The notes under the pieces: model-generated
Told to the model about the DNA's origin: nothing
What the model saw: the letters and a program-made list of their open reading frames with translations, nothing else
The model's database searches: none
Shown here: piece by piece, positions 321 through 61,153 of the stretch
How the letters are laid out: the number at the start of each line of letters is the position of its first letter
Position numbering within the stretch: the first letter of the stretch is position 1
Assembly (NCBI GenBank): GCA_964016885.1
Contig: OZ024741.1
Span: forward strand, 59,830,001 to 59,894,000
Direction: 5' to 3'
Source of the DNA: Eledone cirrhosa
Taxonomy: Eukaryota
Length of the DNA: 64,000 bases
Position numbers and translations under genes: made by a program

Positions 321-3300
321 ATGCATCGAAGGAAGAGATACTCCATTGGCCGAAAAACTGCGAAAGCAGCAACAAGAACAGGGCGGGCAAACGAATCTGC
401 TATTCGACGGTCGCAAGATGCTAAACATGCTGCCACCAGAAGAGCACTTGAAACAGACAACCAAGGAACCATTCGCCGAACCGCTAATGCCGCATCAACT
501 TCTGTTGCGCGAGCTGCCGAGACGGAAGACCAGCGTAAAAGACGTCAGAGTACGGATGCTGCGAATACTGCTGCCGCTTGAGCTACACAGACCTCGCAAG
601 AATGAGACATTCCACTACAATGTAATGTTCAACGAAGGGCCTTTGGGCAGGGTATTTCAAGGCCGTGTTGCTCACGATGGTCCTTAAAAGCATTCGTGTA
701 CAACCCTGACTATGATTACAGTGGCCATCCAGACATGCGAATTGGGAGTATGTCAAAGACGTGCTCTTACTGCAATGCAAAAAAGTGGCCCAGAGAAACA
801 CCTGGCTTGTGTTGCGCAAATGGAAAAGTAAAATTACGGCTCCTGGAGGATCTACCACAACCGTTGAAGTTCCTATATTCAGGCAGTACTGCGGAGTCAC
901 TGAATTTCTGACTTACATCCGGAAGTATAACTGTGCATTCCAAATGACATCTTTCGGGGCGAACATTGTCAAGGAAAGCGGATTTATGCCCACATTTAAG
1001 GTGCAAGGTCAGGTGTACCATATAATCGGATCCCTCCAACCTGCCGCCAATCAAGAACCCCAATTTCTTCAGCTGTACATTGTTGGGAATGTCAACGAGC
1101 AGGCAGCCATGAGGAACTCCATTTCACCTGGTACCAACGTCGAACTTATAAGGAAACTGCAAGACATTCTGCACACAAAAAACAGCTGTCATTAGCTTCA
1201 GCTATGCCTTGGAAGCAGATACCACAGCCAATTTTAATGTGGTAATTGATGCCTCGAAAATGCCATCTGGGGAGCATCCGGCTCGGTATAATTATCCTGC
1301 ATGCAATGAAATCGCTGTGCTTATGCATGGGGGTCAGCATAATCCAAGAAACATTGTCGCCAAGCGTCGAGATAGCATTCTTTAGCGAATCAGCGAAACA
1401 CATAGGTCTTACGATGCGCTCCAGTATCCACTTCTCTTTGTAAATGGTGAGGACGGCTATCAGTACGGAATTCACCAGCATAATCCAGTAAACCCTCAAA
1501 ACTCCGTCAAAAAACCAGTTTCATGCATGGATTTCTACTGCTACCGCTTCATGGTTCGTCACGATTGCTTCAATGACCTACACCAGTCAAGAGACCTACT
1601 TCAGCAATTCGCCGTTGATATGTGCGGAAAATGGAATAGGAGAGCCTGTGTTTCATACGGTCACACCAAAGGCAACTGCGGTCCAAGAGCTACATCCATC
1701 TCCGAGATGCCATCAACAATGACGCAGCTCCCAGTAGCGTAGGAAAAGTCTACATTCTCCCCTCCACCTTCACCGGAAGTCCGCGCTACATGCACGAGAG
1801 AACGCAGGGTGTTATGACCTACGTACGGCATTACGGCAAGCCCGATTTGTTTCTTCACATTCACTTGCAATCCAAAGTGGAAGGAGATCGGGGCAGAACT
1901 GTTCCAAGGGCAACAGGCCAAAGACAGGCATGACCTTCTGGCCCCAGTCTTTCGGGTGAAGCTTATCAATCTTATGGAGCTCATCAAGAGCGGGCAAGTC
2001 TTTGACCCAGTGAAGTGCGACATGTACACCGTAGAGTGGCAGAAGAGGGGCCTAACGCACGCCCACAGCCTCATTTGGCTGTCGACAAAAATATCTTCAA
2101 ATGACATTGACAGCATCATATCCGCAGAGTTTCTTGATCCGTCTATAGATAAAAACCTCTATGACATAGTGAAGACAAACATGGTCCATGATCCATGTGG
2201 GTGGGGTTTCAATTTAAGCTCACCCTGCTTGAACGACAATATCTGCAGCAAAATATTTTCCCCGAAAGTTCTTCCAAGAAACCCAGACAGGCGTTGACGG
2301 ATACCCACTGTACAGGCGACGCCAACCCGGAGTCGGTGGTTTTACAGCAACAGTTGGACAGCACGAGGTCGACAACAGATGGATAGTGCCATACTGCCCT
2401 TTTCTTTCCAATACTTTCGATGCTCTCATCAATGTCGAGTTCTGTAATTCCGTCAAGTCAATCAAGTACATATGTAAATATGTGAATAAGGGTTCAGACG
2501 CTGCTATGTTCGGTCTTCAACAGGACAACAGCCGTGACGAGGTCACGCAATACCAAGTTGGCCGTTACATCAGCAGCAACGAGGCTTTCTGGCGTATTTT
2601 CGGCTTCCCTATACACCAAAGGCACCCTGCAATTGAACAGTTCGCAGTCCACCTGGGGAACGGTCAAAAGGTGTACTTCACTGACGTTAATGCTGCTCAA
2701 ATGGTGGGGGGAACCACGGGAAATCACCCTCACTGTATTCTTCAAACTTTGTCAGGCCGAATCATTTGCTAAAACCCTGATGTATCCTCAGGTGTGGTGC
2801 TATTACACATGGAATAAACAACAATGGGTTCGCAGAAAGGCAGGTCAGCCTGTTGATGGACATCCTGGCATAAAGTTTGATAGTTGCCTAGGGAGAGTTT
2901 ACACAGTGCACCCGAACCAGCATGAGTGCTTTTACCTCCGTATTCTGCTACATGAGGTAAGAGGACCCCAGTCCTTTCATGACCTTAGAACTGCGGACGT
3001 TTCATTATGCTGCACTTACAGGGAAGCTTGCTTCAAGCACGTCCTGCTAGAAGACGGTGCGCAGTGGGATGCCACTTTATTGGAAGTTGTTGCATCTCAA
3101 TCGCCTATGAGCCTACGAGCTCTATTTGCAGTACTGCTGCAAACTTGCGAACTGAGTAATCCTATCTCTTTGTGGCTCAAGTATAAAGATGACTTATCCG
3201 AGGACTACAAACGTCAGGCGCAAGTGCAATACCCTGAGATGGAAGGTACCAGCGACGAGGTCTTCAATCTAGCGTTAATTGACATAGAGGATAGAGTTAC

Positions 3301-3849
3301 ATCACTCGGCGGAAATATGGTCTGCCCCAATGGTCTGCCCCAAACAACCCGTACAGGGTCAAACGTACTTGCTAAAGCTCTTTCCGAGAAACGTCCTACA
3401 ACGTCGATGCTCTTACCAAGTACGCCCTTGAAACCGGACCAACGTCGTGCTTACACCATTGTTGCCGACCATGTGCGACACAGAAAAGGAGGTATGTTCT
3501 TTCTGGATGCTCCTGCGGGGACGGGCAAAATATTTTTAACGAGACTCCTCCTTGCAAAAGTCAGGATGCACAAGGACATTGTGGTTGCTGTTGCCTCTCC
3601 TGGAATTGCTGCCTCTTTGTTGCCCGGTGGCAGGACCGCACACTCCAGTTTTAAATTGCCTCTCAATTTAACGTCAGAAACGCCTACTTGCAGCATCAGC
3701 AAGACCACCGACCAGGGCCAAGTCCTAAAACGATGTCAGCTCATTGTGTGGGATAAGTGCACCATGGCCCGTAAGGGAGCTCTGGACGCATTAAACAGAG
3801 CTCTAAAGGACATCAAAGGCTGCCAGGCTCCCATGGGAGGTGTTACGCT
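321..3849 (+). mobile_element. Helitron RepHel (HUH Rep + PIF1-like helicase), frameshifted and 3'-truncated
   Basis: Successive ORF pieces give an R/E-rich N-terminus (321-581), zinc finger CSYCNAKKWPRETPGLCCANGKV, YNCAFQMTSFGA, Rep motif VEWQKRGLTHAH, KSIKYICKYVNKG, and helicase motifs FFLDAPAGTGK, GGRTAHSSFKLP, IVWDKCTM and PMGGVT. The sequence breaks into a pyrimidine-rich tract at ~3849. Confidence 0.95.
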
Positions 3850-4186
3850 TTTTTTCTTTTTTTCCTCTCCTCACTTTCTTTTTCCTTTTTCTCCGTCTTC
3901 TTTCCTTTTATTCTATTTTCCTATCTTTTTCTTACTATTATATTTTCTGTCATATGTAGGTTTTGCAATTTCCTGTTGACAAGTGATTTTAGGCCTCATA
4001 TCATGTTACCTTATTTTATCTGATGAGAACACATTTTTTGTCCCAGGATGATGTTGTTTTGGAAATGCGCATTATAAAATATATGGAACTTCTTTAACCA
4101 TCTTTTAATTTCTTCTATAATATATACTCCAGTTCTACCAACTGTTGAGTGCTACCTATTGTTCTACAATATTACTCACCTTCTAC
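3850..4186 (+). mobile_element. PLE-type 3' end (pseudo-LTR remnant) interrupting the Helitron
   Basis: Pyrimidine-rich tract, then an HHR (4013-4080), then TTGAGTGC (4145-4152), ending at (TA)n. This is the same layout as the 3' UTRs of the coding PLEs in this window. Confidence 0.65.
4013..4080 (+). ncRNA. Minimal type I hammerhead ribozyme
   Basis: Stem I ATTTTAT (4013-4019)/ATAAAAT (4074-4080); CTGATGA 4020-4026; imperfect stem II; GAAA 4062-4065; palindromic stem III ATGCGCAT; predicted AUU cleavage triplet. Confidence 0.75.
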
Positions 4187-4329
4187 ATATATATATATAT
4201 AAAACATCTAATGTATACACTATGAGCCTTAATACATACAACTATTTTATACGCCGCGAATTACATAAAAAAATACAAGAAAACCACAGCATTAACATAG
4301 ACGGTCTTAACATAGTAAACAAATCTTAA

Positions 4330-5374
4330 AATATCAGATAGAACCGAGCCTCTTACACCTTGTGAATCTACTTTTAATCTGAAAGATCATAAATGTAACT
4401 TCGAAACCAACCCTACCATTAGATTGATATCTCCTTCAAAATCAGATATAGATAGGATTAGTAAGTTTATACTAGATAGAATATTACCACAAATTAAGAA
4501 ACAACTAATTATCAAGCTCTGGGGTAACGCAAGTGAAGCAATAGACTGGTTCAACTCATTAGACAATAAAGAATCGCCCGACTTTATACAATTTGATATA
4601 AATGACTACTACTCTCCTCTCTTCCCAGTCACCCTTAATAAGGCATTATCCTTTGCCCAAAATCATTCGGATCTTTCAGCAGATGAAGTTAAAATAGTAC
4701 TAGCCGCTAGACGAACTATCATTAAATTCGACAATAGCTACTGGGAGAGAAAAAGTAGACTGAATATCTTCGATATCACTATGGGATCGAACGACTCAGC
4801 CCAGATCACAGACTTGGTTGGAATTTATATAGCATATTTCTTACATAAGAAATTTGGTAACTTACAAATACACGCCAAAGTACACCACCACAATACACCA
4901 ACAAATCTAATTCGCAGCCCATACATAACAATCTTCAAAATCATATAGTAGAACTGGCGCATAGCCACTTACCCGACAATTGCCCTCCACTAAACAGATG
5001 CCTTGAGATAAACGTAGTATACTTGTGTATTATCAACTCAGGTAGCTTGGCATGTTATTACATTGGTTCCACAGCTGATGTTTTCAAAAAACGGTGGTAC
5101 GTGCACAGACATTCTATGGTTAATAAGAACCAATCAAATACAACAACTCTTGCAAATAAAATATGGCAACTCACAAATGCAGGCAGTAAATACGAGATCA
5201 GCTGGAAAATACTATAATTTGCTAAAGCCTATCAAACTGGTATGTAGGCTCTGTAATATGGAGCTCTTCCAAATTCTTAATTTTAGTAAAACCCTTCTTA
5301 ACAGTAGGATTGAACGAACTATTTTTTGCCGGCATAAATCAGCATCTAAGTTCCTGAACTTTAGACCAACTTAA
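4330..5374 (+). mobile_element. Penelope-like retroelement (RT + GIY-YIG endonuclease), internally deleted, Naiad-like
   Basis: RT: LKDHK..NPTIRLISPSKSDI..ISKFILDRI, FIQFDINDYY, FDITMGSNDSAQITDLVGIYI. After a deletion, GIY-YIG: YYIGSTADVFKKRWYVH, TTLANKIW, CRLCNMEL, LLNSRIER..CRHK. Clade assignment is from recalled motif similarity. Confidence 0.9.
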
Positions 5375-20866: not shown

Positions 20867-21594
20867 TCTATATATATAAAACTGAGGACGTCTGTCTGTG
20901 TGCGTGTGAGTTTGAATCCCTAAAACTCGAGAACCACCGACTGTTTTCAAACTTTACACATGTAATACTTATGTTTCAGGGAGTGTTCTGAGCAAAAACA
21001 ATTTCAAATTTTCAATGCCCTAGGGACCGCATTAGGCGATTTAGTGATCTCTCTCTATAATTCTTAGTCTTTCTCTTTTTAGGTAGATACATACATATAA
21101 TGTCGCGCCCTTATAATATCTGTCTGTATGTCTGTATGTCTGCATTACGTCACTTCCCTGAGGATGTCTGTGTGTGTGTGTGTGTGTGTGAGTTTGTTTC
21201 CCTAAAACTCGAGAAGTACCCAACCGATTTTTTTCAAACTTTACATGTGTATTACTTATGTTTCAGGGAGTGTTATGCAATAAAAAATCATACATATAAC
21301 GTCGGGCCATTATAATATATGTTTATATGTCTGGCTGTCTGCATTACGTCACTTCTCTGAGGATGTATGTGTGTGCGTGTGTGTGTGTGTGTGTGTGTGA
21401 GTTTGAATCCCTAAAACTTGAGAAGTACCCAACCGATTTTTTTCAAACGTTACATGTGTATTACTTATGTTTCAGGGAGTGTTATGCAATAAAAATCATA
21501 CATATAACGTGGGGCCATTATAATATCTGTTTGTATGTCTGGCTGTCTGCATTACGTCACTTCTCTGAGGATGTCTGCGTGCGCGCGCACGCGT

Positions 21595-21626
<32 letters not shown>

Positions 21627-23476: not shown

Positions 23477-23564
<88 letters not shown>

Positions 23565-23566
<2 letters not shown>

Positions 23567-23907
23567 TATGTTTACGTACATACATATATGTATACAGTTG
23601 TACAGTAGTATGTATATATATGCATACATGCACATATATATATATATATGTACGTATGGGTTCACCGAACATTTATTATAATGCTCGGTTTGTTTGTAAA
23701 CAAACAAAAAGCACGAATTAAGCCGTACTGTATTTAGCAACCATCATTGCCCTTTTGTTCAACACTGACAAAGGAACGACGTACTAGTTTCAAGCTTATT
23801 AGCTATCGTCAGCATATATGTATGTACGTATACATACTTCTATTTAAGTAACAGCCTTACTAAGAGTGAGAAATGAAATTTCGTTTCATATTTTCGTTTC
23901 ATTTTTT

Positions 23908-24162: not shown

Positions 24163-24295
24163 ACATATATATATGAAGTATATATATAAATATATATATA
24201 TATATGGAAAAAATGAAACGAAAAAATGAAACGAAATTTCATTTCTCACTCTTAGTAAGGCTGTTACTTAAATAGAAGTATGTATACGTACATAC

Positions 24296-24300
<5 letters not shown>
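23565..24300. mobile_element. Rearranged dispersed copy of the 45624-46570 repeat unit
   Basis: 23565-23812 is a minus-strand piece including the HHR; 23815-23910 is a plus-strand piece; 24205-24300 is its reverse complement. The pieces are embedded in (TA)n. Confidence 0.8.
23779..23814 (-). ncRNA. Minimal type I hammerhead (same family as 46343-46383)
   Basis: Minus strand reads ATG CTGACGA TAGCT AATA AGCTT GAAA CTAG TA CGT. Confidence 0.75.
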
Positions 24301-24354
<54 letters not shown>

Positions 24355-24576
24355 ATCCTTATCGAGCCCTCTTCGGATATTTTAGTCGTCATATTGATTA
24401 TTACTATATATTTTGATAATTTGGATGGTATAAGCAATATTTAAAATCGAATGTCACAACAGCACTGCAGATAGCGATTTTTAGACGCATCCAACCACAT
24501 ATTAGCCAATGAAACATGTTAATACTGGGCATAAACTCTACTGTATAGTTTATCCATGTTATTCTTTATTCCTGCT

Positions 24577-27411: not shown

Positions 27412-28565
<1,154 letters not shown>

Positions 28566-28584
28566 TGTTGGTGATTAGCTGGTC

Positions 28585-28781
28585 ATTAGCTGGACATGCT
28601 CACCGACATCCAGAGTTGACATTGCACTCAGTGCTCCTGTGGGAGCCCCTACATGGACACACTGGAAGAGGAAGACCAAGGTTAACGTATGTTGATACCC
28701 TAAGGACAGACTGGTCCGTTGATAATGAGGGACAGAGACCGCTGGAGAGAACTCGTCAATGGATCTCGGGAATTTTACCCG

Positions 28782-31646: not shown

Positions 31647-33480
31647 GAAAATGTTCAAGACTCCGACGGCAGATCTCAAGCCGTTTCGACGGCTATTTCT
31701 GGACTAAAATTAGATTTCTAGCGTGGTAATGAATAGCCGAACTTTTCAAGGGGTAATTCCTTATATGGAAAGATTGTTCTTGTCAAAAGGATTGGTCAAA
31801 ATTTCTTGTAAACACAATTAAATCTTTCATGGCGGTGGGTGGAAGGTGGTGGTGGCTGAACTTGCCTGTAGAACAATGAGGGGGGAGGGCGCGGTCAAGC
31901 GTTGAAAGTGAATTTTATACAGCAAATTCTAAGGAGTGTGGATGAAAGTAGGCTAGCTAGAAAGCAGGCAAAAAAAGAATTATGGAGGAATCTGAGAGTG
32001 GGAAGTTATAAAATCAAAAAGTTAATAGATTGAAATTAAGAAATTAAAAAATAATAAATAAAAATAATAATAATAATAAAAATTTAAATAAAAAAAAAGC
32101 TAGTCTAAAGCAGCTGCTATATTTGTAGCTGGTATTGCGTTTTCGGCCAATGCTATATAGAGTTAATCTGGGGTGGGGGTACTGAGGCTACAAAATCCTG
32201 ATGGGCTGCCTCAGGGTAAGCGAAAGATGAAAAAGGAAAAGGAAGAGGAGAGTGAGTGAAAGGAAGTGAGAAGAAGAGATAAAGGGAAAAACGAATATTC
32301 CAACAAAGCCTATATAGAATTAACCGCTTGTGACTTTAAGACCCGGCTCTACCTACACAGACATACGTTCAGAAACCCGACCCGGCAACATGCCACTACA
32401 CTTTCGAGCCACTTCTGGGACCTCCAAGATAGTAATATCACATACCACCTTACTTGGAGCTTACTTTCCAGGGCTAACTCCTACACGGGAGGTGGCCGTC
32501 TGTGTAACTTATGCTCGGAGGAAACAATACAAATGCTCTTTACGAAGGTCCAACTCCTAAACAAAAGAGACGAACTTGTAACCGCATGTAAATACCAATT
32601 GCGTAGGACTTACCTTGCCCTCAAACCCCCTCATGACCCGGATAAGTAGATAATGGCTGTAACATCCTTCTTTTCCCCACTTGCCGAACAAGATAGGGGA
32701 AACCCCAGCATACATAGGTAGATGTACTTTTTTATTTTTTCCTTTTATCTCTTCTTCTCACTTTCTTCCACTCCCTCTCCTCTTCCTTTTCCTTTTTCCT
32801 TTTTCGCTTACCCTGAGGCAGCCTATCGGGCTTTTGTAGCCTTAGTACCCCCACCCCAGTAAACTCTATATAGCATTGGCTGAAAACGCAATACCAGCTA
32901 AAAATATAACAATTGTTTTAGACTTTAGCTTTTTTTTAAATCATTTTTTATTTTTTATTATTTTATTTTTTAATATTATTATTATTTTTATTTATTATTT
33001 TTTAATTTTTTAATTTCAAATTATTAACTTTTTAATTTTATAACTTCCTACTCTCAGATTCCTCCAGAATTATTTTTTCGCCTACTTTCTATCTACGCGA
33101 CTTTCATCCACACTCCTTAGAATTTGCTGTATAGAATTCACTTTCAACGCTTGACCGGCTCCACCCATTCCCTCATTGTTCTACAGGCAAGTTCAGCCAC
33201 CCCACCTCCCACCCACCGCCATGAAAGATTTAATTGTGTTTACAAATTTTGATCAATCCTTTTGACAACTACAATCTTCCCATATAAGAATTACCCCGTG
33301 AAAATTCGGGTATTTATTACCACGCTAAACATCTAATGTTAGTCCAGAAATAGCCGTCGAAACGGCTTGAGATCTGCCGTCGGGGTCTTGAACATTTTCC
33401 TATTACCCACTCTACTACCCTAAGTATTGAGTACTCTGGTGCGTTATGGTCCACCTGGTTCCTTACCACACTTCCTTCGT
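31647..33480 (+). mobile_element. 5'-truncated PLE (GIY-YIG C-terminus + 3' UTR) preceded by an inverted ~640-bp copy of its UTR
   Basis: The 32292-32649 part encodes AYIELT..FKTRLYLH, TTLSSHFW, LCNLCSEE and LLNKRDELVTAC. 31647-32291 is the reverse complement of 32736-33399. Unpaired tail 33400-33480; (TA)n on both sides. Confidence 0.9.
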
Positions 33481-43379: not shown

Positions 43380-43579
43380 CCATCTATCTATCTATCTATA
43401 AATAACAGTTGACTTAAGGAACATTGTGCAAACTAGAAGTATGTGCATCGCAACGTAAATGACGATAATATATATAGTGGTGGTGTAAATAGGGTGAAAT
43501 ACTCATGGAGATGTTGGGTTTGAATAGGTGCTCACGTCTCTGTCAACGCTTTTCTATGTTGGGGGGTACTTTTCCCGAT

Positions 43580-45299
43580 TTTATTATTGAAAAATATGTA
43601 AATACGAGTTCTAACCATCCACTCTCTATAATTAAATCCATCCCTAGAAATGTTTCTCTTAGAATCTCCCGCCTGTCGTCCAACCAACAAACCTTCAAAG
43701 AACATGCCGAATATTATGATGATGCACTTAGGAAAGCCGGACACCTAGATAATATAGAGTATATAGTCGAAGATCACCAAAACACCCAAAATAAATCCCA
43801 TAGGGGTAGAAATAGCACAGAATTCCCACCATACATACACTACCGCAATAAACACAATAACAGTCGCACACCACCAAACAGAAGGCGATGTAAAGAGTAT
43901 ATTTGGTACAACCCGGTCTATAACAACTCTATTAAAACCAATCTACCCTCACAATTCTTTCGATTAGTTAAAAAACACTCTCCAACATCACATAAATATA
44001 ATAAAATCTTAAACCCTAACACTATTCGACTTTCATATTCAACCGCCCCTAATATTGAACAACATATAAAAAAGCTTAACGCAAAACGGTTGTATAAACG
44101 CCTTCCAACACATAACAATACACGTAAAACATTAGCTATAACATCACAAAACAACAAACAACATCCTGTCCTACCTAAGCAACCTCATCAACCCATCCAT
44201 GCCAATACAACAACGCAAAATTATAACTGTAACTGTGTCCAACCAGGAATGTGTCCGTTGAACAATCAGTGTCTTGAACGCAACATCATATACAAATGTA
44301 CTATCGAATCGGATAGACAGAAGTGGTACTATGTGGGATCTACAGCCACCTCCTTCAAATCACGCCTTTATAGACATCGTTACTCGATAAAACATGAAAA
44401 CCAGCGTTATGTAACAACACTCGCAGACAAGGCTTGGCAGCTGCGTGAAAATAACCAACAATTTAACCTAAAGTGGGATATAATATCGTGCCCTTCCATA
44501 CCCACGGACAGGAATTTCATAAATTATGTAATATGGAATTATTTTGTATTATGAAATCCAAAAACATTTTATTAAATAACAGAATAGAGCGATCGTTATA
44601 CTGTAACCATCGCTTAAAATCTACATTTTTATATTACAAATACTACCAGGATTGAACGCCTGTCTCCATCTCCGTTTGATTGTCAAAATACATATTAACA
44701 TTCTCTATTAGTCTTAATTCTATCATCTCTTCTATTATTTACCATTTAATATAAACTGCTATAGATAAAATGAGATTTCTTAATTCAATTCCCTAATGCA
44801 TATATCAGCTGGCTACTAGCATTGATGTTATTCAGTAGAAGTCGAAATCTCCCCCTTCCTCAATTGACACTTTATAATTAATACTACTACACCAAATGAC
44901 CAGCCCTGCCCATTGTTCAATTGGTCAAGTATAGATTAAAATAGGCACTCCCAAAAATTCTTATTTAGATAAAATAAACCATTTACTCATTGTATTCTCA
45001 TTAGAAACCCTTTATATACTTGTTTAGCAGTAAATTGAATTACCATCTGTCAAATACTATCCCCTCTTTTCTTCCTCTATTACAACTAATATAAATACTT
45101 CAATTTTTCTGATTTTATCCAACTTATCCAAAATTTCTGAAGAAGTGACAACTGATTATACATTTGCTATCGAATACTTGCTAACATTATATGATTACGC
45201 AAGCAGCGATACATAGGTATTCCGTCTGTTACAGAAACATATGTCAATACGTAATAAATTCCTTTTTTTTAAAAAAAGCACTTTCATTTTATATTCATC

Positions 45300-45300
<1 letters not shown>
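43580..45300 (+). mobile_element. 5'-truncated PLE (RT thumb, linker, GIY-YIG) with 3' UTR, Naiad-like
   Basis: YVNTSSNHPLSIIKSIP..RISRLSSN, IWYNPVYN..IKTN, YNKILNPNTIRLSYS, CNC..CPLNNQCL..NIIYKC, YYVGSTATSFKSRLYRH, LLNNRIER..CNHR (ends 44655); the UTR carries an HHR. Confidence 0.93.
45134..45248 (+). ncRNA. Type I hammerhead with long stem II in the PLE 3' UTR
   Basis: CTGAAGA 45137-45143, stem II GTGACA/TGTTAC, GAAA 45234-45237, palindromic ACATATGT, GUC triplet; stem I is only 2 bp. Confidence 0.6.
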
Positions 45301-45369
<69 letters not shown>

Positions 45370-45519
45370 AGGGAGTGTAACGCGGAGTTACTGTAGGTTC
45401 TCCCGGGTTAGCACTCGATGTTTAGGTTCACTTCTGTATCAAGGTGTAGAGGTAGGCAGAGTGTAGTATAATAAAATAAAACAAGGATGAGTGGTTACTC
45501 CTTCATTACGTTTATTGGT

Positions 45520-45586
45520 TGGTAACGTGCGTTTCGCCGCCGATCAGCTCAAGGTGTGATCTGTAATCAACGGCTCGTCAGATTAT
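45520..45586 (-). ncRNA. Hammerhead in a minus-strand PLE-type end (45368-45620)
   Basis: Minus strand reads CTGACGA GCCGTTGATTA...TGATCGGCGGC GAAA CGCACG TT: 11-bp stem II with G-U pairs; stem I is weak. Confidence 0.6.
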
Positions 45587-45921
45587 ATTCCAGGCAATAC
45601 GTGGACACAGGGAACTTATACATACCGAGCATTATAATAAATCTTCGGTGACTCCATACGTAGATATATATATGTGTGCATGTATGTATATATATATATA
45701 CATACTACTGTACGTCTGTATGCATATATGTATGTACGTGTACATACTTATATTTACGTAACAGCCGTATTAAGAGTGGGAAATGAAATTTCGTTTCATT
45801 TTTCCGTTTATCGTTTTCGGTGCACCCGGCCGATTAACCCACTCGATATGCAAATTGGGCTACTCAGCCGTTAATATGCATAAGGTAAGTATATACGTTC
45901 AACAATCTGCAGGAAGGTATA

Positions 45922-45962
45922 CGTTACTGACGATAGCTAATAAGATTGAAACTAGTACAGCG
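45922..45962 (+). ncRNA. Minimal type I hammerhead, unit 1 (two stem mismatches)
   Basis: CGTTA CTGACGA TAGCT AATA AGATT GAAA CTAG TA CAGCG. Confidence 0.75.
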
Positions 45963-46342
45963 TTCTTTGTCAGTGTTGAACAAACGAGCAACGATGGTTG
46001 CTGGACACTACAGCTTAATACAGGATGTTTGTTTACAAACACACCGAGCATTATAATAAATTTTCGGTGAATCCATACGTAGATATATATATGTGTGCAT
46101 GTATGTATATATATATATACATACTACTGTACGTCTGTATGCATATATGTATGTACGTGTACATACTTATATTTAAGTAACAGCCGTACTAAGAGTGGGA
46201 AATGAAATTTTGTTTCATTTTTTCTGTTTATCGTTTTCGGTGCACCCGGCCGATTAACCCACTCGATGTGCAAATTGGGCTACTCAGCCGTTAATATGCA
46301 TAAGGTAAGTATATACGTTCAACAATCTGGCAGGAAGGTATA

Positions 46343-46383
46343 CGTTGCTGACGATAGCTAATAAGCTTGAAACTAGTACAGCG
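46343..46383 (+). ncRNA. Minimal type I hammerhead, unit 2 (intact)
   Basis: CGTTG CTGACGA TAGCT AATA AGCTT GAAA CTAG TA CAGCG: 5-bp stem I, AGCT/AGCT stem II, palindromic ACTAGT stem III, GUA cleavage after 46378. Confidence 0.9.
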
Positions 46384-46627
46384 TTCCTTTGTCAGTGATG
46401 AACAAACGAGCAACGATGGTTGCTGGACACTACGGCTTAATATGGGATGTTTGTTTACAAACACACCGTGCATTATAGTAAATGTTCGGTGAATCCATAC
46501 GTACATATATATATATATGTGTGCATGTAAGTATATATATACATACTACTGCACGTCTGTATGTACATACTTATATTTATATATTTATATATTTATATAT
46601 TTATATATATATATATGTACATACTTA

Positions 46628-46702
<75 letters not shown>

Positions 46703-46936: not shown

Positions 46937-47045
<109 letters not shown>

Positions 47046-47189
47046 ATAATAATAAATGTGAAGACTAAAATCCGAAGAGGGCTCGATAAGGAATATATAT
47101 ATATATAAGATATATAAAACTGTAGAGCAAATATTTATTAAAATAACATATTAAAGTTTAAGCAGTAACTTTAACTTTAATCTGTTATC

Positions 47190-47272
<83 letters not shown>

Positions 47273-54948: not shown

Positions 54949-55529
54949 CACAGACTAAAATCGCCGAGACATTCAGACGGAGAAAAAAATAGATTTGACT
55001 TTAGAATAAAACGTTCTATAGTAAGACATGCATTCCCATACAAGATAAGCCGACATAATCGTGACCTTTGTATTGCAAAATGCATGAAGATAACTTAAAT
55101 ATAAGGTAATCAACCAGAAATCTAAAGTAATCTTTAGCTGTCAGCACAAAGTATTCTTTCTTACATTTAAGATTTCCTCGGTGGGAATCGAGTGGAATAC
55201 CATGCACACACAAAGCAGAATTATTGCACACCCACACCAAGGAGATAAGTAGAAATTAAGTTTATCAAACACCTAACCATGTATATATGTACATAAACTC
55301 AATGTGCAATACACTGATTATGCACAAATATGAATAGTTATGGTAGACAACTGACACCGTTTGTAATTGTAATGACACATATTCTTTGCAATAACTAATA
55401 CTAACTGCTTATCATAGACTTTTAATGTAAATAACTTCTAATATAATTAGAATAACATTCAATTATACAAATTCCTATAACAGGATTATCCTTCAAAATA
55501 TTGTTGAACATGTGTATACAACAACTACA

Positions 55530-56160
55530 ACGGTACGCGATGGGGCCCACCCACAACCCCGGCAGACAGAATGGAGAAGGCGTTTCCCCGGAGGACGGCA
55601 AGGGAGACGCGCTGGAAAAACCACTCCAACTCACGGGGCTCACACCTGCGGCTGGCCAGCTGGTGGTGAGTAAGGAGGTAGCCCTGGGGACGAGGATACC
55701 AGAAGTCTCCACTGCCATGGGTACAACCGCAAACCTGTCGGAGAGCGACCAGTATTTGAGGAGTTTATACCCCTCAGCCCGACGTGCAGCAGAACCTGGG
55801 TCAGTCGCAGACTGCACCAGGTTGCGGCTGCAGAAAGTGTCGGTGCAAGTGGCATCCCAGACGAAGGGTTTGCCACCGCGGAACGGGAAGATGGTCATGC
55901 CATCTGGCCTTTTGCCGTTCTCTCGATCCAGCCCCACCGGCTCGAGCTGGGAAGTTAAGCCTGCAGCGTCAAACCCATGCTTAATGACCTCGTTGGGAGC
56001 TGCATGGCGTGGAATGCGGCCGGCACTGTGGCGACAGGAAAGCGGGTGGAGGCCGAAAGAGTCCACGGTGGAACCGCAGCGACATTGGTGTGGCTGGCAG
56101 ATCCGGAGGCCGAGTCTCAGGGAAACGCCGACGCGCAGGCTATGGTTGTCTAGCTGCGTG
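55530..56160 (-). mobile_element. CRE-like non-LTR retrotransposon 3' end (Zn knuckle + PD..D endonuclease)
   Basis: LRVGVSLRLG..CRCG..DSFGLHPLSC..RH..NEVI, KRPDGMTIFPFRGGKPFVWDATCTDT, AVETSG. Confidence 0.88.
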
Positions 56161-56296
56161 TTATAGTATTTATGTTTTTGTGATGAGCTAGTGTTGTAAG
56201 TATTTAGTGGATTCCATACAAATAGTTTGAATAAACTCTTAATCAATAAAGATGCCCAAACATTGTTGGGTACTCTTTATTCATTAAGATCAAAGA

Positions 56297-58072: not shown

Positions 58073-58299
58073 TGTGCATATGAATGCGTCGAGATTTATA
58101 TCCATATAGAAATAATAATATTTTCGGAGTTAAGAAACAGATGTGCCATCAGATAAAAATGTCTATTAAATAAAAGTTAGAAATGCATCTGTACACAAAT
58201 ACAGACAGACAAAAAGTTCTAGCAATCTTTACAGAGTCAATAAATAGATATATATAGTGCACATACTTAAATATGGAATGTTACGCAATGCAAACACAC

Positions 58300-59460
58300 A
58301 CACAGCACCGGCGGACAGGATGGAGAAGCCGTTTCCCCGGAGGATGGCAAGAGAGACGCGCTGGAAAAGCCACTCCAACTCGCGGGGTTCCCACCTGCAG
58401 CGGGCCAGCTCAGTGCCTATGGTGGTGAGTAGGGAGGTAGCCCTGGGGCCGAGGACACAAGAAGTCTCCACTGCCAGGAGTGCAACCGCAAACCTGTCGG
58501 AGAGCGACCGGTATTTGGGGAGTTTGGCCTCCTCAGCTCGACGTGCTGCAGAACCTGGGTCAGTCGCAGACTGCACCAGGTTGCGGCTGCAGAAAGTGTT
58601 GGTGCAAGTAGCATCCCAGACTAGGGGTTTGCCACCGCGGAACGGGAAGATGCCATCAGGCCTTTTCCCATCCCTTCGGTCCAGCCCCACCGGCTCGAGC
58701 TGGAAAAGAAGCCCGCAGCGTCCAAGCCATGCTTTATGACCTCGCTGAGGCATGGCGTGGAAGGCGGCCGGCACTGAGGCGACAGGAAAGCGGCTGGAGG
58801 CCGAAAGAGTCCATGGTGGAACTGCAGCGACATTGGTGTGGCTCGCAAATCGGAGGCCGAGCCTCAAAGAAACGCCGATGCGCAAGCTATTGTTACCTAG
58901 CTGCGTGCCAGTGGAGACTGTGGGGTTTGGAGGCCGCACGAAAGCAGCCAAGGCGGTGCTCGTCGAGCTGGAGTGTGAGCCTATCTGAGGCCAGGCGGCA
59001 CTGCATGGCATCCCAAGTGATTTGGGGGGAATTGACGTCAACAGGGGGATAAGGAGGAGGGATGTTTACTGGGCTAAGTCCCAGCCGGTCCCACGTCTCA
59101 CAGGCGGCCTCACGTTCTCTGAACACAGAGGGTTCTATTGTGTTTTGAAGAACCCTGCTGACGAGGCCGCGGCACGAGGTTACCGACGAAAGATGCACCG
59201 GCAAAACCAGCGAGATCGGGGACCGGAGGCCAAGGCCGCCATACCTGACAGGTAAAGTGGCCTTTTTCCATCCAATGTCGTCAAACTTGACATTGCATAT
59301 CACCTCGGCTGCTGCTCAGATACAAGTATCGAGGTCAGCGGGGAGAGATGTGTGGGTGTAGCACGTAGCGCTGCGAAGGGTATAGAGGAGCTTCGGCATG
59401 ACGAAGCAGTTCCTCAACAGAAAAGAGTTCGGTGGCCGTCGATCAAGCCCAGTCGGCTCC
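58300..59460 (-). mobile_element. CRE-like non-LTR retrotransposon, longer 3' fragment
   Basis: LLRNCFVMPKLLYTLRS, WKKATLPVRYGGLGLRS, KRPDG.FPFRGGKPLVWDATC, FQRVSLAILRGN; close paralogue of 55530-56160. Confidence 0.9.
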
Positions 59461-60711
59461 TGAGCGTCTGGAGTTGTTAAATGCACAGGCAGCATAAACA
59501 AATGATTAAGATGTTCGTTTCTCAATAATTATGTTCGTTTTTCAATCCCCTTAAGTGGAATCTGGGCAAATGTCATGTCATAGCCACTGGTTAACCAAAG
59601 CGTTGTTTGTGAAATGGTAAAACACAGACACTTATATGTTAATTTAAGGAACAGGATATTCCCTTCATCGAAGAAGTTGGATAGTCTTCGTCAAAATAGG
59701 CAGAGCTCCATTCCAGCATTTTAACAAATGTTGTTTTATCCTCTGCTTCTCTCACCAGGTTCATATGTTTGGTTCGTACCGTCTTGAGAGCGATGCAGGC
59801 GGAAACAGTGTATAACTTCAAATCCATCCATCTGCACCACGAGGCTGGACTTGGGATTTCACGGGTTCTTTACTTTCAGAGTCGGTGATGAGGGGCGTCG
59901 GAACGGGACGGAGCACTGTACAGACCTGCCAACCTCTAAAAACCAAAACAAGGAGTACCATGAACAAAATAATAACAAAAATGAGGCAAAATGGGGAGAT
60001 TTTGCATAATAAAAGCTATACCCATTTTCACAAGAGAAGAGATCTCTCACCTACCTCAAAGTGGGTGGGAGATATCGCTGTCAGACGAGGAGAGTGACAT
60101 GCCTGATGGTACCACCTGATTCTGGTCACCTCTAGCGTGAGTTAAAATTGAGTTGTCAAGAGATATTTACCTCCACGCCCATAACGGCTCTGATACGTGA
60201 AGCAATGTACGAGCCGCATCCATGCTCCCCGTTCTTTAATTTATATATTCTTTCTTCTTATTTGTAAATATCTACAACTTTGAAATGAAATTTGAATCAT
60301 TAATTTGATTGAGAATATATTAAAGTGTTGGCAAATATAAGTCTTTCATATTATTAAAACTAAGTCCAAATTATTTTATTCCTGGATTGTGAAACCTAGA
60401 TACGAAGTTCTCTTGCTATAAAGAAAGACATAAGTTATAAATTATATATTCTTTTTAATATTTGTATTTAAAGATATGAATTCTAGACTTGTAAGACAAT
60501 TTAATTGCTTCTGGCAGTTGATAGATTTTTTATCAAATTAGAAATGTGATGATTCCAAAATCTTCATTATCCTAGTGGAAAATTACGTATCAGCTACAGG
60601 TGTGGCGGTATAACAAAACATTTTATAATTACAATATAATTCTCTCTCTATATATATACGTATGTATGCATGTGTGTGCGTGGAGGGGGGCTTCCTTCCC
60701 CCTCCTATCCT

Positions 60712-61110: not shown

Positions 61111-61153
61111 GTCACTGAAGAGGTCACAGAATGTGTGACGAAAGAACTTTGAC
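61111..61153 (+). ncRNA. Minimal hammerhead with an extra nucleotide before stem II
   Basis: GTCA CTGAAGA G GTCACA GAATG TGTGAC GAAA GAAC TT TGAC; CUU triplet. Confidence 0.7.

Follow-up and report, generated by a model that had tools for sequence, protein, structure and literature searches.

A non-coding hammerhead repeat of Eledone cirrhosa with a PLE-type insertion signature at (TA)n microsatellites

The window analysed is a 64,000-nt stretch of Eledone cirrhosa contig OZ024741.1. At positions 45620–46579 (+), it carries a one-armed, 5′-truncated insertion of 2.3 repeat units arranged head-to-tail, as delimited by comparison of the window with itself. Unit 1 (45624–46042, +) shares 96.2% identity with unit 2 (46043–46464, +), which is 422 nt long, has a GC content of 37% and serves as the reference unit, with numbering (q1–q422) counted from 46043. 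A partial unit 3 (46465–46579, +) terminates at a 3′-end site designated S1. The 5′-end of the insertion near 45620 abuts unrelated DNA, and its 3′-end at 46579 leads into the (TA)n target microsatellite (46580–46699). Self-comparison bore out an earlier note's description of tandem units of about 420 bp beginning at 45624, 46043 and 46465 (partial), and the repeat likewise contains no recognisable ORF: its longest Met-initiated frame is 95 aa long and is broken in sister family B. Within unit 2, S1 is located at q126–133 (46168–46175, +) and a second end site, S2, at q187–189 (46229–46231, +). These are the putative first and second starts of reverse transcription, and the segment between them corresponds to a PLE-type ‘tail’. 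Among contigs from four sequencing runs, those of organism A, possibly the source sample, end loosely in TA at 46231 and at 46175; organisms B and C yielded 12 and 4 contigs, respectively, too few for use.

The unit is mobile, as had been proposed from a dispersed third hammerhead copy, and further copies occur genome-wide. The third copy, at 23.6–23.9 kb, is a head-to-head two-armed insertion in which an older minus arm (23557–23814, −; 85–87% identity), running from q304 to S1, faces a partner arm (23812–23899, +) that runs from q99 to about S2. Its hammerhead core (23812–23782, −) has a stem I interrupted by the inversion junction, with 3 pairs remaining. A further repeat fragment without a ribozyme extends from q42 to about S2 at 24216–24354 (−).

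The type I hammerhead of unit 2 (46342–46384, +; core from 46348; predicted cut after 46378) is intact and consists of a 6-bp stem I, the CUGACGA box, a stem II of 4 bp with a U·U mismatch at its base, GAAA, a palindromic stem III and GUA. That of unit 1 (45921–45963, +; core from 45927; predicted cut after 45957) occupies the same position but is damaged by two substitutions, G>A at 45926, which leaves A·C as the closing pair of stem I, and C>A at 45945, which leaves G·A in stem II. A type I hammerhead in each full unit, as first described, therefore holds for position but not for integrity. The GUA cleavage sites were confirmed in position as predicted cuts, one after 45957 and one after 46378 with a spacing of 421 nt, and the palindromic stem III, ACTAGT, was found in all three copies in the window. 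The motif had been called minimal, which proved incorrect: a helix I of 6 bp, a helix II of 4 bp and a short palindromic helix III characterise the canonical metazoan type (PMC4209133), and the hallmarks of minimal hammerheads (helix III absent, helix II enlarged, helix I short) do not describe the motif of the repeat. Canonical metazoan type I hammerheads with a short stem III are described as acting as dimers (PMC4209133), and an axolotl ribozyme with a basal U·U in helix II shows weak cleavage on its own and good cleavage in dimeric form (PMC7229834). Two focused Rfam scans gave no hammerhead match to the motif, even at an E-value of 10; over the whole window Rfam returned 231 matches, the 150 listed being miRNA/sRNA models on simple repeats. 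The minimum free energy fold of the lone motif has no stem III and does not surpass those of shuffled sequences (z −0.39). The complete monomer folds well (z −5.3, or −4.1 without its TA/TG block).

Exact matches to the 36-nt motif number 5,150 in the 3.0-Gb genome, and those to a 23-mer just downstream of it 13,094. A degenerate pattern for the intact core, covering the whole superfamily, gave 27,265 matches, while the reversed control of each of the three patterns gave 0. At about 440 nt per core, the superfamily is estimated to account for roughly 0.4% of the genome. The loci examined (about 119 non-redundant loci of the present family, A, and 32 of sister family B) were chosen non-randomly, as best hits or as first matches on contig C1. 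Family B has a unit of 467 nt that is about 80% identical to that of family A, and its copies are 98–99% alike. Both families are young and both have spread as bare units. Arrays range from the 2.3 units at 45620–46579 to 4–10 units elsewhere and, in one case, about 50. This longest array (G000:C1:51772416-51793780; L259, L090-L092) has a partly four-unit higher-order period and is a retroelement turned satellite. Some repeat arrays grew later by local duplication: L051, L089 and L091 are perfect dimer or four-unit periodic arrays with terminal units of a different type. The dimer-periodic arrays L051 and L089 were considered as proof of dimer circles and rejected, their terminal units being of a third type. 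An apparent conserved splice donor (AG/GTAAGT at q261–268) was also discarded, since it is missing from family B. At L177 (G000:C1:19617100-19626400), two distinct two-armed insertions have each been tandemly duplicated together with their flanks.

Between families A and B, none of the 23 columns in the core and stems II and III of the ribozyme differ, against 39 of 279 outside it (p=0.036), a modest value that comes from a single pair of lineages whose related copies are not independent. Of the four A/B differences in the ribozyme, one falls on the free base of the core and one in a loop, and the other two are the partners of a single stem I pair (303:339). Across 152 locus counts (141 loci), this pair is U-G in 103, G-U in 33, A-U in 6, C-G in 3, U-A in 2 and unpaired in 5, so that pairing is kept in 147. 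Selection of modest strength appears to act on the ribozyme fold, and the ribozyme likely matters for the spread of the repeat, because its fold has been kept between lineages. At 45620–46579 itself, the two lesions in the unit 1 ribozyme mean that probably no circle is produced, and the circular RNA of about 421 nt that had been predicted from 45624–46570 is probably wrong, one of its two ribozymes being damaged. Two consecutive intact ribozymes, the state called ‘active’ by Li et al., are present at other loci such as L026, L164 and L237 and absent from 45620–46579.

The ends of the insertions are highly ordered. Among 151 uncut 3′ arm ends, 126 lie at two fixed sites (63 at S1 and 63 at S2), which are 56–59 nt apart; S1 ends fall mainly at q126–130 and at times at q133, and S2 ends at q187–189. 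A TA flank is found at 49 of 63 S1 ends and 57 of 63 S2 ends, as against 10 of 25 other ends, and the S1 and S2 ends join (TA)n across 2–5 nt of TA-like identity. The 5′-ends are truncated at scattered points. About half of the loci sampled consist of two arms placed head-to-head, and these pair the two end sites almost strictly: 54 two-armed copies comprise 35 with S1 and S2, one with S1 twice, one with S2 twice and 17 with a non-standard end, so that one of each is found in 35 of the 37 with standard ends (p=5e-9). When a strict motif is used for the count, S1 is paired with S2 in 27/27 family A pairs and 4/4 family B pairs, family B using the same two end sites as A. Rare variants are common to partner arms at 2.2/kb and to different loci at 0.08/kb, a difference of about 28-fold; both arms of a pair therefore usually appear to come from one source. 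The predicted cut site is spanned by 131 of 156 arms, a figure biased by selection on the ribozyme, and only 3 of 42 5′-ends fall in q330–346, none of them at q337, in a set picked on sequence downstream of the cut. This lack of a pile-up of 5′-ends at the cut site points to a circle or an uncut multimer as template; a linear monomer cut at the ribozyme does not usually serve as one. Indels at q333–343, a possible sign of template jumps, were absent from about 210 rows, partly due to selection. With its 5′ truncation, partial tandems and head-to-head inverted copies, the repeat carries the insertion signature of PLEs.

Upstream of the repeat, a 5′-truncated PLE at 43493–45302 (+) retains an RT thumb, a CxCx5C linker, a GIY-YIG domain and a 3′ pseudo-LTR. 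Its family is young, the best 150 hits sharing 94–98% protein identity, and has open frames of up to 783 codons. A 774-aa frame at L131 contains RWK, DKT, the CxCx5C linker and, C-terminally, a GIY-YIG domain. This frame has 58 homologues at 32–40% identity, one of them from a sea cucumber, and Pfam assigned no family to it. PMC8557442 describes RWK, DKT and CxCx5C as characteristic of the Hydra clade, whose target is (TA)n, and the element at 43493–45302 can be assigned to that clade by its motifs and its (TA)n target. Insertions of the family likewise end in (TA)n at two sites, separated by 107 nt, and its two-armed copies are mixed in 10 of 11 cases by eye and in 4 of 5 by strict motif. It appears to be a highly active PLE with a ribozyme that is non-canonical or dead; its pseudo-LTR (44900–45302) contains a hammerhead-like half with stem I, GAAA, a palindromic stem III and GUC, without a CUGANGA box.

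The repeat unit and the PLE at 43493–45302 have no sequence in common, and they presumably adjoin because both target the (TA)n microsatellite. Mobilisation of the repeat by the resident PLE RT/GIY-YIG machinery, as the earlier note envisaged, is thus partly upheld: the insertion ends are of PLE type, and a helper of the neighbour's kind is plausible even though the neighbour lacks homology to the unit. According to PMC8557442, non-autonomous PLEs usually share 3′-end similarity with their helper. A helper with the end sequences of the unit was found neither among about 150 repeat loci nor among 42 PLE loci; among the few of many PLE families compared, no PLE end matched the unit over more than 19–22 nt, which is at chance level. 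Repeat–PLE chimeras at L003, L004, L152 and L237 were rejected as pointers to a helper, their PLE parts being decayed or ending at the same class of site. The kind of helper is well supported, at the level of a Hydra-type PLE rather than of one particular family.

Other short elements lie close to the repeat. The element at 45368–45582 (−), considered as a partner arm and rejected, belongs to a separate, older (about 90%) short non-coding family with at least 2,509 candidates, mostly monomeric. Members start just 5′ of a hammerhead of their own (CUGACGA, long stem II), terminate in (TA)n at two sites separated by about 99 nt, and frequently form inverted pairs. At 47040–47190 and 24354–24411 are 3′-end pieces of another Hydra-like PLE family (also at L195, L217 and L237), which has a hammerhead-like stretch without a canonical core and often adjoins copies of the repeat.

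Non-LTR retrozymes are an established metazoan class that includes molluscan members (PMC7229834). The earlier assignment of the repeat to this class is supported by its non-coding tandem units, conserved type I hammerhead, mobility and independence of an ORF, and every sequence-level feature of the class appears to be present. We therefore regard the repeat as a likely non-LTR retrozyme, that is, a non-autonomous PLE, which would integrate through target-primed reverse transcription begun at two sites within the element. It is very probable that a Hydra-clade PLE RT/GIY-YIG protein copies this non-coding hammerhead repeat into (TA)n, with priming at S1 and S2 and joining of the ends. Such a protein would cut both strands of the microsatellite; one cDNA would be primed at S1 and the other at S2, and their joining end to end would yield a head-to-head copy. 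A purified PLE reverse-transcribes from two internal sites in vitro, with a tail, cuts both strands and is a predicted dimer (PMC11167929). PLEs are also described as making partial tandems, and inverted copies with the tail on one arm (PMC3846280, PMC8557442). Counting against the reading are the dispensability of a PLE's hammerhead for insertion in vitro (PMC11167929), the results for Xenopus retrozyme dimers, of which eight of nine showed no cleavage in vitro and one was cleaved (10.64898/2026.07.22.740005), the missing end match to a helper among the loci compared, the lack of an Rfam match and the poor fold of the lone motif. The template RNA would run through the ribozyme site and could be either a circle, produced when hammerheads cleave and ligate as dimers, or a multimeric transcript left uncut, the two standing at about even odds as the main template.

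The full classical retrozyme cycle, in which monomer circles serve as the principal template and are copied into the tandem arms by rolling-circle reverse transcription, may operate, its chances falling slightly short of even. Arms cross the cut site without ending at q337, units within an arm mismatch at 4.5% of diagnostic sites as against 32% between loci, the monomer is well folded, the ribozyme is conserved, and circles are known from coral, mussel and axolotl (PMC7229834). However, arms or partner arms at L187, L055, L100, L077, L069 and L024 mix subfamily states, which one monomer circle cannot produce without later conversion, and the periodic arrays L051, L089 and L091 point to local duplication. 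A comparable weight is given to linear multimeric transcripts, uncut or partly cut, from tandem arrays as the template, in which case the ribozyme would only trim or fold the RNA and circles would be by-products. The mosaic arms and the existence of a source-sized array (about 50 units) are consistent with such transcripts, as are the use of unprocessed RNA as the main substrate of the anole PLE in vitro (PMC11167929) and the slow cleavage expected of weak U·U-type ribozymes (PMC7229834). Copying from an internal start, however, would shorten the product at each round; long 5′-ends run past the cut site, and young multi-unit arms (L026, L029, L160/164) are uniform, unlike the old long array. 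A narrower version of the circle cycle is rather doubtful: a single ribozyme-made circle would template a dimeric Hydra-type PLE protein, the subunits of which would start at two fixed sites, one per (TA)n strand, roll round the circle and have their products joined head-to-head. If true, the integration step that accounts of animal retrozymes have lacked would be legible in tens of thousands of genomic copies.

It is very unlikely that the unit is no more than the pseudo-LTR or UTR of a coding PLE, with the arrays left over from truncation. The ends and the ribozyme do resemble those of a pseudo-LTR, and Xenopus retrozymes are reported to derive from pseudo-LTRs (10.64898/2026.07.22.740005), but the units here are directly adjacent with no ORF in between, the PLE ORFs beside arms (L003, L004, L152, L179) are decayed, belong to unrelated families and have arbitrary junctions, and two families that differ by 20% have each multiplied as bare units. 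An ordinary satellite that was dispersed through DNA recombination and resembles a hammerhead by coincidence is the least credible explanation, since, for all the real local growth of arrays and the lack of an Rfam match, 3′-ends are fixed in (TA)n, 5′-ends are truncated, S1/S2 pairing is strict and changes between lineages are limited to tolerated ribozyme positions.

With the metazoan non-LTR retrozymes described in PMC7229834 (among them axolotl HHR_Amex2 and mussel repeats), the repeat, read here as a PLE-mobilised retrozyme, shares non-coding tandem units of low GC content (37%; class <45%), a single type I hammerhead in each unit, copies in the thousands, a well-folded monomer and the presence of PLEs in the same genome, and with HHR_Amex2 also the U·U at the base of helix II. 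It differs from them in its slightly longer unit (422–467 nt vs 170–400 nt), its internal TA/TG microsatellite block and the predominance of dispersed arms of 0.5–2 units, often inverted. Vertebrate retrozymes have been argued in a preprint to be non-autonomous PLE derivatives (Li, Clavereau, Pollet; 10.64898/2026.07.22.740005). The conclusion on origin and mobilisation is the same here, and the unit is within their range of 51–972; the preprint's evidence is co-occurrence and pseudo-LTR homology, whereas the present evidence is the target, the two end sites and the one-of-each inverted arms. A homologous pseudo-LTR, present in the retrozymes of that preprint, was not found among the PLE loci compared here.

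The Hydra clade and other EN+ PLEs, as described in PMC8557442, PMC3846280 and PMC11167929, have in common with the repeat insertion into (TA)n, truncated 5′-ends, partial tandems and inverted copies arranged head-to-head, as well as a tail that one arm may carry, two start sites inside the element and a hammerhead. In contrast to those elements, the repeat lacks an ORF, has a tail of 56–59 nt rather than 30–40 nt, and consists as a whole element of the monomer. Like non-autonomous Chlamys elements such as MRC1 (PMC8557442), it is a non-coding PLE derivative with multicopy head-to-tail insertions; the Chlamys elements, from a different clade and host, resemble an autonomous family at their 3′-end, a match that was not found for the repeat among the PLE copies compared. 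A literature search for retrozymes or hammerhead-bearing PLEs in octopus and cephalopods found no description, though repeat databases may list the family, and the main text of an octopus repeat paper does not mention ribozymes (PMC13282606).

Re-entry of animal retrozymes into the genome has so far been argued from co-occurrence and pseudo-LTR likeness. What is new here is a counted insertion signature for PLE-type integration of a retrozyme, beside a young autonomous family that inserts in the same manner; the repeat family names a target, two start sites and a candidate type of enzyme. The nearly invariable pairing of one S1 with one S2 end further limits the ways in which PLEs in general can form inverted copies.

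Elsewhere in the window, two more hammerhead-like motifs are found in other repeats, at 61115–61149 (+) and 6580–6551 (−), and pieces of two further Hydra-like PLE families lie at 4319–5374 and 32260–32649. Decayed frames at 606–3979 are, by their motifs, what we take to be Helitron-like Rep/helicase remnants. RT fragments of two kinds of non-LTR retrotransposon, presumed on their motifs, are located at 27593–28599 (−) and at 55422–56276 and 58229–59476 (−). A 209-bp tandem unit with a GT run is present in 2.5 copies at 21090–21609.
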